Source: a virus
Taxonomy: Duplodnaviria; Heunggongvirae; Uroviricota; Caudoviricetes
DNA length: 4,313 bases
Strand: one strand, 5' to 3'
Virus record (IMG/VR): IMGVR_UViG_2778261204_000004
Made by a program: the position numbers and the translations under genes. Positions 97 to 4,006 of the stretch are shown here, in pieces; position 1 is the first letter of the stretch, and every line of letters starts with the position of its first letter. Below the pieces are notes generated by a model. That model did not search any database, had not been told where the DNA came from, and was given only the letters and a program-made list of their open reading frames with translations.

Positions 97-144
97 TTTG
101 CTGCTCCTCATCATATCGACCCTGCAAGGTCGGTTGGTTTCTCC

Positions 145-233
145 ACAAAACAGAGAAGAACACCTGCGGTGGCAGCCGCCCGGGTGGATTGGGTTATGAG
201 CCCGTCGTCCGGTGATGCTCTTCTCTGTTTTGT
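145..233 (-). other. Long imperfect stem-loop (15-bp perfect stem 145-159 / 219-233, plus 4 bp 161-164 / 211-214, GC-rich structured interior). Candidate cis-regulatory RNA element in the leader of the leftward gene; strand not certain.
   Basis: acaaaacagagaaga (145-159) is the exact reverse complement of tcttctctgttttgt (219-233); cacc (161-164) pairs with ggtg (211-214). The interior 165-210 contains further short GC stems such as gcgg..ccgc. No convincing ORF covers it. Confidence 0.3.
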
Positions 234-279
234 AAAAAGAGCGGTACCAGCCGGAAGCAAGTGTACAAACTGGTACCGC
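231..279 (-). terminator. Candidate Rho-independent terminator for leftward transcription: 10-bp perfect stem followed on the minus strand by a U-tract.
   Basis: gcggtaccag (241-250) and ctggtaccgc (270-279) are perfect reverse complements with a 19-nt loop. On the minus strand the hairpin is followed directly by TCTTTTTACA (complement of 231-240). There is no T-tract after it on the plus strand. Confidence 0.45.
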
Positions 280-691
280 CAAAGCAGTGGCTGTTGTGGT
301 GGGGTTGTCACTTAAGCGTATGGTCAACCTGACAACCCGGTGCCACTAATGGGGTAAGGATAACCCCGCCATACTTACCGCCGCGCCATTTCGCGGATTA
401 CCACAACGCTGAGAGCACTTAGCCAGTTATGGCACCACACTTTGTCGCGGCTCCATAAATGCCCTCATCGTTGCACCCTGGTCTCTTCCCAGGCGTCAAA
501 CCGAATCGCCACGCTGGTTAGGCGTCTTATCAGCATCATCATTGACTTGCACATTCCGGCTACCTGGTTTGTTTGCCCGAGCAAGGAGTGGATTGTCCCC
601 TTTAACGTCCCCAGACCGCTAACGACGCATGTGCCATACGCCGTGTTACAACCAACCTTTCGTTAACAACAGTCTGTTGTTTGTTCAGATA

Positions 692-946: not shown

Positions 947-972
947 GTATAAAACCCGACCGGTTGGTCGGG
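947..972 (-). terminator. Rho-independent terminator ending the leftward cI / ParA-like transcription unit.
   Basis: Perfect 7-bp GC-rich stem cccgacc (955-961) / ggtcggg (966-972) with a 4-nt loop. On the minus strand it is followed immediately by TTTTATAC. It lies 37 nt downstream of the stop codon at 1009-1011. Not a plus-strand terminator (no T-tract follows on plus). Confidence 0.6.
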
Positions 973-1008
973 CGAGAATTATGTTCGTTCTAAATCATAG
1001 TTATTGTA

Positions 1009-2094
1009 TTACAGACACTTGACTACTGTTGAAACATCAGATTCTAGTGCTTCAATTTGTGCTCTATTAGCTTGGGTCGCCATACCATAGATAGTGTAAC
1101 TCTTATGCTGCAGCCTACTTAAAGGGCATCCCTCATGGTTTATTATTGCTGCAAGAGTATTACCATCTTTGACATTTTGAACCCTCTCGAAAGTAGCCAC
1201 ATTTGTGAACAGATGAGGATGTGTATTTAACAGGTCATCAGTGATTCTTTTGATCTCTTCTGCATGTGATTTGAATGCTTTTGCTGCATCACTTTCATTA
1301 GTTCTTGAGCGGTTTTGTACGAAAAGGTGTAGTTCAGGTAGTTCGATAAGGTTTTGCTTTGCTTCTTTGTTGAAATCTAAGAACATTTCATCTTGTTCTG
1401 ACTTGTCAATAGACACTCCATAAATAAGTTTAACAAGGTTTTTTATTCCGCGAATTGATGCAGCATCGGCAGTGCAAGGGATAATTATTCTATTTGCCGC
1501 GACTACTCCCAATTCTGTGTAGCTGGCAAAACTTGGATTACAATCAATAAAAAATGTTTTTGCTCTGTCAGAAATGTTTTTATCGGCTTCAAAAGATGCT
1601 ATTAGATCTACCAGCAAAGATCGGCTTTTCTTCCATGCTTCTTTTACTGGGGATGAGCCAATGTGAGATATTAAGCGTGAACAGATATCAAGATCGACAT
1701 CACCAGGAAGAATATATAAGTTCTCTGGCATTTTTGCATTAACGTCATGGGCCCGTACAAAGTAAGAAGATTCATTTCCTAAACGAGACAAAGGAGATTT
1801 GCTAAAACGTTCCTTGATATAACCTGCGATTGTAACATTTCTGTCTCGCAATTTATTTAGATTTTCTTCCCCGGTACCATTGCCACCAAGAATAATTTCT
1901 GAAACGTTTGATTGAGGGCATGAGTCAATAACCACAACATCTTGATCCGGATGAGATATAGCAAACTCAACGGCAAGATTATATGTAAGAAAAGTTTTTC
2001 CTACACCACCTTTGTTGTTCCATACTAAATATTTTGTATTGGTGGAAATCATATCTGCTACCCCATCTGTCGCTTCAGTACGTTCATTAATCAT
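1009..2094 (-). CDS. ParA/MinD-superfamily P-loop ATPase (deviant Walker A), 361 aa, standalone. No ParB-like partner or centromere-like repeat array is visible.
   Basis: Deviant Walker A KGGVGKT (nt 1993-2013, residues 28-34); A-prime-like VVIDSCPQSN; Walker-B-like hydrophobic run ending in Asp (TFFIDCNPS). SD AGGA sits ~7 nt upstream of the ATG at 2094. An internal Met (2052) would give a more typical ParA N-terminus, so the start is slightly uncertain. There is a C-terminal extension of roughly 80-100 aa beyond a typical ParA core. Confidence 0.85.
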   Translation of the reverse strand: MINERTEATDGVADMISTNTKYLVWNNKGGVGKTFLTYNLAVEFAISHPDQDVVVIDSCPQSNVSEIILGGNGTGEENLNKLRDRNVTIAGYIKERFSKSPLSRLGNESSYFVRAHDVNAKMPENLYILPGDVDLDICSRLISHIGSSPVKEAWKKSRSLLVDLIASFEADKNISDRAKTFFIDCNPSFASYTELGVVAANRIIIPCTADAASIRGIKNLVKLIYGVSIDKSEQDEMFLDFNKEAKQNLIELPELHLFVQNRSRTNESDAAKAFKSHAEEIKRITDDLLNTHPHLFTNVATFERVQNVKDGNTLAAIINHEGCPLSRLQHKSYTIYGMATQANRAQIEALESDVSTVVKCL

Positions 2095-2318
2095 TATCGT
2101 ATCCTGTTGTATAGAATTGTCTATTATTTATGTTTTATTTTGTGTTAGTAACGCACCCAAAGATAACATATGGTCTTTATCTTTTCTTACTTAGGGTAAC
2201 AGCTCAGTGTTAATCCATTTTTATGGACCAATGTGCCAAATAAAATTTGTATAAAGATTTTCTATCCTTATCTTTTATCATCTGTGCTCGTTTGCTTTAA
2301 CGATTGCTAGATGCCTAA

Positions 2319-3059
2319 TTAAAGTCGATTATATTTAATCGACTCATGAATCAGTGCCTTACCCATAACATAAAGCTGATCTTGCGACTTCTCATCAATG
2401 TACCATTTCTCATAGGCGGGGTTATCCGAAAGAACAGCTAGTTTGTTGCCTTGCATTTGTAGACGTTTAACATGGAAAGTCTTACCGTAAACGAAAGAGT
2501 AAACTCCATCAGTCTGGAAGTGGCGAACGGAAATGTCGACAAACAATCGATCCCCGGAAACAAGAGTTGGGGACATACTATCTCCATTTACCGTCATAAC
2601 TTTTATATCATTCTGAGAACGGTTTCCGAAAAGAGAACGGGCATGTTCAGTTGTGAACTCAATGGCGTAGAGCACATCAACATAGTCTGAAAGCATATAG
2701 GTCCCAGGTCCTGCGCTAACGCTAAGATCCAAAACTTCTATCCTGTATACATCGGGCTTTGTTGGATTGGGGATGCTTGCCATTTCCTTACATTCCTCTC
2801 TATCTCCAACACCATATTCTAGATATGAAGCTGATACCCCAAGAGCCAACGCAAGTTTACTCATGACAGAGACACGTGGCTTCGCTGCGCCGATTGTGTA
2901 TCGACGAGCCATTTCATATGTAACGCCCACAAGACTTTTGAGTTGAGTGACAGAGATTCCTTTGATTGTCATCAATTCGTTTAGTCTCTTGGCGAAATCT
3001 GGATACTTCTGTTCTTCTACCATAGGTAGAAGATTACTCACATCACACGCGCTAGTCAT
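2319..3059 (-). CDS. Phage cI-like repressor: N-terminal XRE/Cro-CI type HTH plus C-terminal S24 (LexA/UmuD-like) self-cleaving peptidase domain.
   Basis: HTH-like segment FAKRLNELMTIKGISVTQLKSLVGVTYEMARRY. S24 catalytic dyad context: nucleophile Ser in VNGDSMSPTL and the general-base Lys in HVKRLQ. Divergent from a Cro-like gene. The track ORF begins at TTG 3080; I prefer the in-frame ATG at 3059 (protein MTSACD...), so the start is uncertain and the transcript may be leaderless. Confidence 0.88.
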   Translation of the reverse strand: MTSACDVSNLLPMVEEQKYPDFAKRLNELMTIKGISVTQLKSLVGVTYEMARRYTIGAAKPRVSVMSKLALALGVSASYLEYGVGDREECKEMASIPNPTKPDVYRIEVLDLSVSAGPGTYMLSDYVDVLYAIEFTTEHARSLFGNRSQNDIKVMTVNGDSMSPTLVSGDRLFVDISVRHFQTDGVYSFVYGKTFHVKRLQMQGNKLAVLSDNPAYEKWYIDEKSQDQLYVMGKALIHESIKYNRL

Positions 3060-3129
3060 TTCTATTTTAAGTAGTTGCAATTTGCTATTTTAAGTAGCAT
3101 CATCCCTCTGAATTTCAGAGGAGAAAGGC
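3060..3129. promoter_or_regulatory. OR-like divergent control region: two 13-bp direct repeats ctattttaagtag (3062-3074 and 3085-3097, spaced 23 bp) with partial dyad symmetry. PR-like promoter for the Cro-like gene: -35 TTGCAA 3075-3080, -10 CATCAT 3098-3103. Strong SD GGAG(A) at ~3119-3124.
   Basis: Repeats read directly from the sequence. The second repeat sits in the 17-bp spacer of the PR-like promoter, mirroring the arrangement at 692-720. On the minus strand a TAAAAT -10-like hexamer sits 4 nt upstream of the cI ATG, consistent with a leaderless PRM-like transcript. Confidence 0.6.
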
Positions 3130-3393
3130 ATGTCATCTCAAAACTACACAGAGAAAGCAGTAAAGGCTGCGGGAAAATCTTTATCTGAAGTAGCCCGTCG
3201 CTTTGGTTTTAAGTCCACTCAATCCGTCGCTAATTGGGTAATTAACAATCAAGTCCCGTCAGAACGGGTTTTACAACTTTGTGAGTTGGGAAACTGGTCC
3301 GTGACCCCTCATGAACTGCGTCCTGATATTTACCCCAATCCAAATGATGGATTACCTGAGTGCTATTCAAAAGTTAGCGGTTCAGCTGCGTAA
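3130..3393 (+). CDS. Cro-like small HTH DNA-binding protein (YdaS/Cro-type), 87 aa.
   Basis: Divergent from the repressor, with a strong SD. HTH-like segment SLSEVARRFGFKSTQSVANWV and a C-terminal ELRPDIYP motif that I recall from YdaS-type Cro proteins of Rac-like prophages. Recognition is from memory, not a search. Confidence 0.8.
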   Translation: MSSQNYTEKAVKAAGKSLSEVARRFGFKSTQSVANWVINNQVPSERVLQLCELGNWSVTPHELRPDIYPNPNDGLPECYSKVSGSAA

Positions 3394-3421: not shown

Positions 3422-4006
3422 GTGGGTAAAGAACCTGAATGGAAAGTTGATAAGCAACCAGCATGGCTGGTGGCAGCAATACGAAGAACGATTGCTGATT
3501 TACCTCATGGCTATGAGGAAGCAGCGGAAATTCTTGGTTTGTATAAATCTGATGATATCACCCCAGCGAAAGATCAATTGCATAACAGACTGCGTAGCGG
3601 TGGGGATCAAATTTTTCCACTTGAGTGGGCCATGGTTTTACAGGATGCCAGTGGTACCAGGCATGTAACGGATGCGATAGCGCGTCGTAGTAATGGGGTG
3701 TTTGTGCCGCTGGTGGACATTGATGACATTGACAATGGTGACATTAATCAGCGGCTGATGGAGTCAATAGAATGGATTGGCAAGCATTCCCAGTACTTAC
3801 GCAAGGCAACTGCTGATGGAGTTATTGACCAGGCTGAGCGTGAGCAAATCGAAGAGAACAGCTACCAAGTAATGGCGAAGTGGCAGGAGCATTTGACACT
3901 GTTATTTCGTGTTTTTTGTGCGCCGGAAAAGAGTAACGCCCGCGAGTGTGCAGCTCCGGGCGTCGTGGCGTCGATTGCTTCTGGTTGTGGAGAAACTAAC
4001 GCATGA
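3422..4006 (+). CDS. Phage CII-like regulatory protein (resembles the CP76 / phage regulatory CII family). Start assigned to GTG 3422; the track ORF extends upstream to ATG 3311.
   Basis: Long ORF immediately downstream of cro. GTG 3422 is the first start-capable codon after the cro stop (3391-3393) and has an ideally spaced SD GAGGAA (3410-3415). The upstream in-frame ATGs at 3311 and 3344 lack an SD and would overlap cro by 50-83 nt. The segment [54 protein letters not shown] resembles phage CII (CP76-type) proteins as far as I recall; family assignment is tentative. Confidence 0.7.

Follow-up and report, generated by a model that had tools for sequence, protein, structure and literature searches.

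The stretch of DNA analyzed here (the window; 4,313 nucleotides [nt] of the IMG/VR record IMGVR_UViG_2778261204_000004, a virus of the Caudoviricetes) encodes on its minus strand, at positions 1009–2094, a 361-amino-acid (aa) ATPase with a ParA/MinD fold, which to judge from its sequence is very probably a defense gene of the GiPD474 type. Our overall explanation, which we hold to be likely, is that this gene is the Escherichia coli orthologue of gipd474, carried as single-gene anti-phage defense cargo between the repressor gene cI and the left operator and promoter (OL/PL) of an integrated lambdoid prophage. It should be noted that the gene family, its slot beside the repressor, and its defense phenotype were already published in 2025, E. 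coli homologues included, so that little is added here as a discovery. What goes beyond that publication is the invariant cysteine with its parallel in BcsQ, the autonomy of the single gene across phyla, and its repeated capture behind unrelated repressors; the remaining interest lies in the mechanism, in the invariant Asp-to-Cys change, and in the spread across phyla of a ParA-fold protein that has no partner.

GiPD474 (STM474_RS13505, gene gipd474) is encoded in the immunity region of Gifsy-1 in Salmonella Typhimurium 4/74 and of Gifsy-3 in strain 14028s, and was described by Bosma, Noireaux, and Bowden (Appl Environ Microbiol, November 2025; PMC12724215). Poor plating of phage Felix O1 (FO1) on S. 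Typhimurium 4/74 was traced to gipd474 alone: its deletion in the native Gifsy-1 context restored FO1 plating, and in S. LT2 or E. coli K-12 the gene carried on the low-copy plasmid pWKS30 lowered the plating of FO1, Alf5, and T4 by some 5 logs (PMC12724215). No protection was conferred against VpaE1, S16, and Jbel, which are close relatives of the blocked myoviruses, or against T7-like or SP6-like phages, and expression in exponential phase exceeds 500 transcripts per million (TPM) (PMC12724215). The published protein is encoded by 1086 nt, has 361 aa with GGVGKT at residues 29–34 and an AAA_31 domain, and has ParA, MinD, and Soj as structural neighbors; its homologues of at least 70% identity form three enterobacterial clades, of which clade I comprises Salmonella and Escherichia, and all homologues in the paper adjoin repressor/cro/cII modules (PMC12724215).

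Several lines of evidence identify the window gene as the E. coli orthologue of GiPD474: a protein identity of 93%, membership of a common cluster, primer matches, length, and the position of the GGVGKT motif. The window ATPase and a database protein of the GiPD474 type (P0001) are identical at 335 of 361 positions over their full length and without gaps, and a single 90%-identity cluster contains both of these together with S. Typhimurium proteins. The published forward knockout arm and both cloning primers match exactly the P0001-type loci in our comparison (L096–L100 and L165), as does the insert-check primer in all of these except L099. No locus compared had an exact match to the reverse knockout arm or to the verification primer, whereas the other four primers matched; translated, the two knockout arms of gipd474 give the N-terminal and C-terminal ends of the P0001-type protein. 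Upstream of the ATPase, the P0001-type loci have a 155-aa repressor consisting of a helix-turn-helix (HTH) domain only, and in sequence terms these loci fit a Gifsy-type immunity region. The paper set a minimum of 70% for both identity and coverage in defining homologues, and the window ATPase has 93% identity over 361 of 361 residues; it likewise has the 361-aa length, GGVGKT at residues 29–34, and the AAA_31/ParA-like domain, and it lies in a prophage immunity region beside repressor, cro, and cII, as does the GiPD474 family. The two proteins are thus alike in length, Walker A position, fold, and slot. They differ in the switch I motif (DACPQ in GiPD474, DSCPQ in the E. coli ATPase), and the partner repressor is a 234-aa cI with HTH and S24 domains in the window versus the 155-aa HTH-only protein of Gifsy.

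An earlier sequence-only reading of the window had raised, among its hypotheses, a lysogen-expressed anti-phage effector, which is now supported by the experiments on the 93%-identical GiPD474 (PMC12724215). Its remark that it was not aware of a described ParA-family gene at this slot is superseded: such genes are already annotated in phages phi297 and ST11-VIM1phi8.2, and GiPD474 has been characterized (PMC12724215). A literature search found no follow-up work on GiPD474, and literature on orphan ParA proteins in defense islands or on ParA in the rexAB or immunity region turned up no characterization of the family.

The protein and its fold

Positions 1009–2094 are a real gene, as evidenced by matches to Pfam and PHROG profiles, by 1041 database homologues, and by an AlphaFold2 (AF2) model. 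The open reading frame (ORF; 1086 nt) is exactly the one that had been read from the letters, and the motifs named at that stage are in place: the Walker A motif KGGVGKT occupies residues 28–34 (signature lysine K28, P-loop lysine K33, and T34), and the Walker-B-like motif FFIDC occupies residues 181–185, a hydrophobic strand ending in D184 and followed by C185. D184 is conserved in at least 95% of the family. The profile and structure searches suggested by the sequence-only reading place the protein in the ParA/MinD fold, with no curated ParA, MinD, or BcsQ subfamily reached. AAA_31 (E = 3e-16) and CbiA (E = 1.5e-8) match above their gathering scores, and PHROG 164, "ParA-like partition protein", matches with E = 2e-46. 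The AF2 model, calculated from 21 homologues, has a predicted local distance difference test score (pLDDT) of 85 and a predicted template-modeling score (pTM) of 0.87. Its best Foldseek matches in the PDB are McdA, Soj, pSM19035 delta, ParA, and MinD (probability 1.0, E 5e-10 to 1e-6), at 13–17% sequence identity and target-normalized template-modeling (TM) scores of 0.69–0.74. All curated NCBIfam subfamily models searched (ParA_partition, BcsQ, MinD, ArsA, and others) scored far under their cut-offs, with 48.9 bits versus 180 for ParA_partition (NF041546), 21.1 versus 157.85 for BcsQ (TIGR03371), and 15.9 versus 212.9 for MinD (TIGR01968).

The ATPase therefore has in common with ParA, Soj, McdA, and MinD the fold, the residues K28, K33, and D184, and the AAA_31/CbiA signature. 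It differs from them in being about 100 aa longer, in having a cysteine and not an aspartate in switch I, in its low sequence identity, and in lacking a ParB, MinE, or McdB partner gene, a centromere, and a membrane-targeting helix. The C-terminal tail is acidic (…LESDVSTVVKCL), and no amphipathic membrane-targeting helix of the MinD type was found in the protein; no min genes lie nearby. Residues 236–361 gave no significant match to Pfam or to PDB-sequence profiles that would indicate a separate C-terminal effector domain, and the Foldseek alignments to Soj and McdA cover most of the query, for which reasons the model makes it more likely that the extra length represents insertions within the ParA fold than an appended domain. 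Residues 305–327 (VQNVKDGNTLAAIINHEGCPLSRL), which rank with the best-conserved motifs in the C-terminal part of the family, show a weak resemblance to LysM repeats of LytE that is probably due to chance; the LysM-like likeness of the VKDGNTLAAIINHEG motif to LytE (E = 1.1) is nonsignificant and was rejected as a chance similarity.

Carriage in E. coli and the wider family

An integrated prophage of E. coli strain 30EVA1 matches the window at 99% identity; its early region is CPS-53/e14-like, its head HK97-like, and its tail contractile. The ATPase gene is encoded in 71 of 5426 complete E. coli genomes (~1.3%), including O157 and O145 Shiga toxin-producing E. coli and avian pathogenic E. coli (APEC) strains. 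It is always present as a single copy, the copies are at least 99% identical, and the rest of the immunity module is always present. Carriage of this allele could affect the susceptibility of these strains to therapeutic or biocontrol phages of the T4-like and Felix O1-like groups. All copies but one (70 of 71) are chromosomal, the remaining one being the same prophage within an F-type conjugative plasmid. The strain concerned, APEC E18005, has the whole prophage with its immunity module in a plasmid of 205 kb, beside the tra operon (NZ_CP126947.1, 140810–185141); a defense-carrying prophage can therefore move by conjugation.

Far beyond the Enterobacteriaceae, relatives at 35–60% identity were found in at least 409 stretches of a species-representative genome collection. 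Among their sources are Campylobacter, Aggregatibacter, Acinetobacter, Gallionella, Azospirillum, cable bacteria, Planctomycetes, Verrucomicrobia, Spirochaetes, Rickettsiales, and archaeal metagenome-assembled genomes (MAGs). Members of 38–49% identity, always as a lone gene, were observed in a Methanoperedenaceae MAG (L053), a Hodarchaeota MAG (L064), Rickettsiales (L024, L026, and L027), and Akkermansia (L022). The members from archaeal MAGs and from obligate intracellular or host-associated bacteria suggest wide horizontal transfer, with binning errors being possible for the MAGs.

To look for a partner gene, all ORFs within 5 kb of the gene were clustered for 80 genomic loci from diverse phyla, and the immediate neighbors were scanned against Pfam. 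No conserved partner gene emerged from the 80 loci, with no cluster common to more than seven of them, and the Pfam scans of the immediate neighbors revealed neither ParB nor any other recurrent family. The family is thus strictly autonomous as a single gene across phyla. A minority of immediate neighbors have defense or mobile functions: type I and III restriction-modification, MADS, AriA, NsnA, PD-T4-2, HEPN, an AbiEii-type ATPase, and IS1595.

Phage and IMG/VR records provided a second set of 83 loci, encoding members at 30–100% identity. Here the survey of homologue neighborhoods that had been proposed from the sequence found the prophage members behind repressors and without ParB: A co-oriented gene lies directly upstream of the ATPase in 77 of the 83 loci, and these upstream genes fall into 24 clusters at a 60% identity threshold, 13 of which are HTH+S24 repressors and several more HTH-only proteins. 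The family gene has thus been captured recurrently downstream of many unrelated repressors in prophages. The layout is annotated, with the gene directly 3' of cI, in Klebsiella phage ST11-VIM1phi8.2 (83% identity) and Pseudomonas phage phi297 (38% identity), and the ORFs of the unannotated record of Salmonella phage S.Inf 5-2 (30% identity) show the same arrangement. The phi297 protein, gp27 ("ParA-like partition protein"), is of the same family over 99% of its length, has a DxCPQ motif, and follows a CI-like repressor; it has previously been discussed only as a parA without parB and a possible partition gene (PMC3564109). Some other members have been named "BcsQ" by JGI.

Near-identical ATPase alleles were also seen with differing repressors (IMG/VR loci L085–L164): the 100% allele with a 253-aa S24 cI, the 93% allele with the 155-aa Gifsy-type protein, and alleles of 83–86% identity with at least eight repressor types. 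Evidently the ATPase gene has recombined between immunity modules, yet it is always placed downstream of the repressor.

Altered active site, candidate mechanism, and rival explanations

The sequence-only reading had named DSCPQ (residues 57–61) as a ParA-like A' motif. This holds for its identity as the switch-I/A' motif; it does not hold for the catalytic residue, as the aspartate that is catalytic in ParA, Soj, and MinD is replaced here by Cys59. An HMMER alignment to the structures of Soj D44A and HpSoj D41A puts Cys59 at the position of the water-activating switch-I aspartate, the residue corresponding to Soj D44, HpSoj D41, and MinD D40 in the motif DxDPQ. Of the 116 unique members of the family, 111 have DxCPQ, and an alignment of 113 sequences at 30–100% identity shows Cys59 in every one. 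The Walker A motif KGG[VT]GK[ST] occurs in all 116, and both Walker A lysines and the Walker B aspartate are kept. In the text consulted, the GiPD474 paper (PMC12724215) makes no mention of the Asp-to-Cys change. The same change is found in BcsQ (D-A-C-P…), where it accompanies an ATP-loaded sandwich dimer that is stable through purification and has weak ATPase activity (PMC7840130). This is the only feature that the two have in common: BcsQ needs BcsR, whereas the ATPase family has no partner gene and occurs in prophages and not in a bcs context.

Based on this active site we put forward, tentatively, the following mechanism. In the lysogen the ATPase would bind ATP and form an ATP-sandwich dimer, which is predicted because the deviant Walker A motif with its signature lysine is intact; alone, this ATP dimer would hydrolyze poorly, since Cys59 replaces the catalytic aspartate, and would persist in a preloaded state of slow turnover. 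Such a dimer may represent a primed switch, or a trap, that responds to a component of the phage. This component, in all likelihood a protein engaging the dimer as ParB, MinE, or McdB peptides do, would then either be sequestered or fire the dimer, so that phage development would be stopped after DNA entry. The dimer itself, alone or on DNA, would be the effector, given that no separate effector domain is detectable. The sensitivity of T4, FO1, and Alf5 versus the resistance of their close relatives S16, Jbel, and VpaE1 argues for the recognition of a specific phage protein, or for phage-encoded inhibitors, and not for a general DNA feature. In a broader form of this proposal, which we consider unlikely, the family would be a distinct and ancient ParA/MinD clade (WNNKGGVGK[ST] plus DxCPQ) that spread horizontally across bacterial phyla and archaea as a partner-less immune module, with a permanently ATP-loaded trap dimer capturing, or being fired by, phage mimics of activator peptides of the ParB/MinE type. 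If true, this would be the first innate-immunity sensor-effector of the ParA family.

A number of points weigh against the defense reading or the mechanism attached to it. The E. coli allele differs from the tested Salmonella allele by 26 substitutions, clustered at residues 2–17 and 298–302, which might alter specificity. A scan against PADLOC-DB v2 (2023), including RexAB, the PD-T4, PD-T7, and PD-lambda systems, and Abi systems, gave no significant match to the ATPase. Co-transcription with cI is deduced solely from the absence of a predicted terminator between the two genes. Most distant homologues do not adjoin recognizable defense genes, so that a defense role across phyla is an extrapolation, and the block after adsorption is a tentative suggestion of the authors (PMC12724215). 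As for the slow-hydrolyzing dimer, BcsQ is without the canonical Walker A lysines that are kept in the GiPD474 family, which makes the analogy a partial one; the proposed mechanism is drawn from sequence, model, and this analogy. The PADLOC scan also returned a match to Drt5 (E = 0.007), which was dismissed as spurious.

A different course of events after infection would be abortive infection through host toxicity, in which the triggered dimer coats or condenses the nucleoid, or blocks division or chromosome segregation, and the infected cell stops growing before phage release. A ParA/MinD fold without a separate effector domain is compatible with this, the rex slot classically houses such systems, including RexAB and BstA (PMC8585504), and the phage range, in which T4 is blocked and S16 and Jbel are not, and Alf5 and FO1 are blocked and VpaE1 is not, is typical of abortive sensors that depend on a trigger. 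We nevertheless regard it as rather doubtful: gipd474 is expressed at >500 TPM in growing cells with no toxicity reported (PMC12724215), and the ATPase has an acidic tail in place of a MinD-type membrane-targeting helix and scores far below the cut-offs of the MinD and partition models. A MinD/ParA mimic acting on the host, another hypothesis of the sequence-only reading, which this scenario recasts as the output of defense, may still play a part in the mechanism, though nothing was found in its support. Partition is suggested by the labels "ParA family" and "ParA-like partition protein" in RefSeq, PHROGs, and phi297, and was raised for the latter by Krylov et al. (PMC3564109); the protein would then serve as ParA for a plasmid-prophage, or for another element outside the chromosome, whose ParB and parS lie elsewhere. 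However, gipd474 alone confers phage resistance (PMC12724215), and the catalytic aspartate required for ParB-stimulated turnover is missing. Among the hallmarks of a type I ParABS system, the gene has no adjacent centromere-binding gene (ParB or ribbon-helix-helix), no iterated repeats, no replicon requiring partition, and no ParA-model score above the cut-off (48.9 bits, as given above). Neither ParB nor repeats were found in the window, in the prophage stretch of ~44 kb, or adjoining any of the 160 loci examined, and the single plasmid-borne copy in E. coli belongs to the same prophage that is integrated in the chromosome in the other 70 genomes. The statement that this is not a partition operon is thereby borne out, and the hypothesis of a plasmid-prophage with its parB elsewhere is rejected as extremely improbable.

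Soj-type ATPases have regulatory roles, for example on DnaA/Spo0A, and by this precedent the window ATPase could be a regulator of lysogeny or host physiology that controls the prophage switch, replication, or induction, with resistance being a side effect of plasmid expression. The tight and repeated linkage to many repressor types in prophages would agree with such a role. A purely regulatory role is nonetheless very unlikely, because deletion in the native Gifsy-1 context restores FO1 plating, so that the phenotype is not an artifact of overexpression, and because gipd474 is active in E. coli K-12 without the prophage (PMC12724215); in addition, most distant homologues do not lie beside repressors or prophage genes.

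Organization of the immunity region

The features of the window, with their coordinates and strands, are as follows.

96–1, minus strand: 5' end of yfdP
97–690, minus strand (the direction of PL transcription): stretch of 594 nt without a credible ORF
692–738, no strand: OL-like operator cluster, an inverted copy of the right operator (OR); left edge of the immunity cargo slot
954–973, minus strand: hairpin resembling an intrinsic terminator, GCCCGACC-AACC-GGTCGGGT followed by TTTATA
1009–2094, minus strand: probable gipd474 orthologue, 361-aa ParA/MinD-fold (SIMIBI) ATPase with an ATG start (ORF, Pfam, PHROG, AF2/Foldseek)
2095–2318, minus strand: AT-rich spacer of 224 nt, ~30% GC, from the cI stop to the ATPase start
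2319–3023, minus strand: cI-type repressor with HTH_3 and Peptidase_S24 domains, 234 aa from the RefSeq start
3057–3103, no strand: OR-like operators between the divergent cI and cro (repeat analysis)
3130–3393, plus strand: Cro-like repressor with a YdaS-family HTH
3422–4006, plus strand: CII-like/YmfL regulator with a GTG start as in RefSeq

The ATPase gene lies co-directionally downstream of the cI-like repressor, and since the inverted operators OL and OR bracket both genes, its position is that of rexA-rexB in lambda, as had been proposed. The OL-like module was recovered as well: 692–738 and 3057–3103 are inverted 47-nt copies with 77% identity. A 17-bp core palindrome of OL (TGCTACTAAAAGTAGCA) is found at 696–712, and OR contains 16-nt direct copies at 3059–3074 and 3082–3097, spaced 23 nt. 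Lambda RexAB, BstA, and other cargo of the cI–N hotspot occupy the same position, co-oriented 3' of the repressor and inside OL–OR, and follow the same logic of an anti-phage function expressed in the lysogen (PMC8585504). RexAB is a two-protein system of a sensor and a membrane component and BstA a KilA-N protein, whereas the ATPase is a single soluble ParA-fold protein, unrelated to these in sequence and fold.

The terminator assigned to the gene at that stage likewise stood, as a minus-strand hairpin (973–954) of eight pairs, six of them G–C, with a T-rich tail, 36 nt beyond the ATPase stop codon. An AGGA Shine-Dalgarno sequence precedes the ATG by ~8 nt. No minus-strand terminator is predicted between cI and the ATPase gene (2095–2318), and the most likely route of expression in the lysogen is that the cI (PRM-type) transcript reads through into the ATPase gene and ends at the gene's own terminator. 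A sigma-70-like site at 2123–2096 overlaps the Shine-Dalgarno sequence, ends 2 nt short of the ATG, and was discarded as spurious.

The AT-rich setting noted from the letters is confirmed by the GC contents, which are 0.33–0.41 in the ATPase gene and 0.28–0.35 in its flanks, against 0.54 left of OL and 0.44–0.52 in cro/cII. ORF and repeat scans of the window agree with the earlier statement that the flanks have no ParB-like ORF and no parS-like repeats: No ORF of at least 40 aa lies wholly inside 667–1008 or 2095–2318, and no iterated repeats of note occur in the window apart from the OL/OR operators. No ParB gene was found in the ~44-kb prophage stretch. An Rfam scan of the whole window with E values up to 1 gave no match.

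Two further observations concern the neighbors of the ATPase gene. Upstream of the RefSeq ATG (3023), the cI frame stays open for 19 codons, as far as a TTG (3080) that falls within the OR operators; of the two possible products, the plausible one is the shorter, of 234 aa. At the other end of the window, the stretch 97–690 has a GC content of 54% and a very stable predicted RNA fold (minimum free energy –233 kcal/mol, z = –4.5 versus shuffled sequences), which includes a long near-perfect hairpin around 140–235. It has no match in Rfam and is conserved at 80–99% across 95 phage records whose immunity types differ, among them cdtI, Ayreon/phi80-like, and Stx2c phages. Judging by these features, the stretch may encode a structured leader or RNA element, such as one for put-like antitermination, in lambdoid phages without N.

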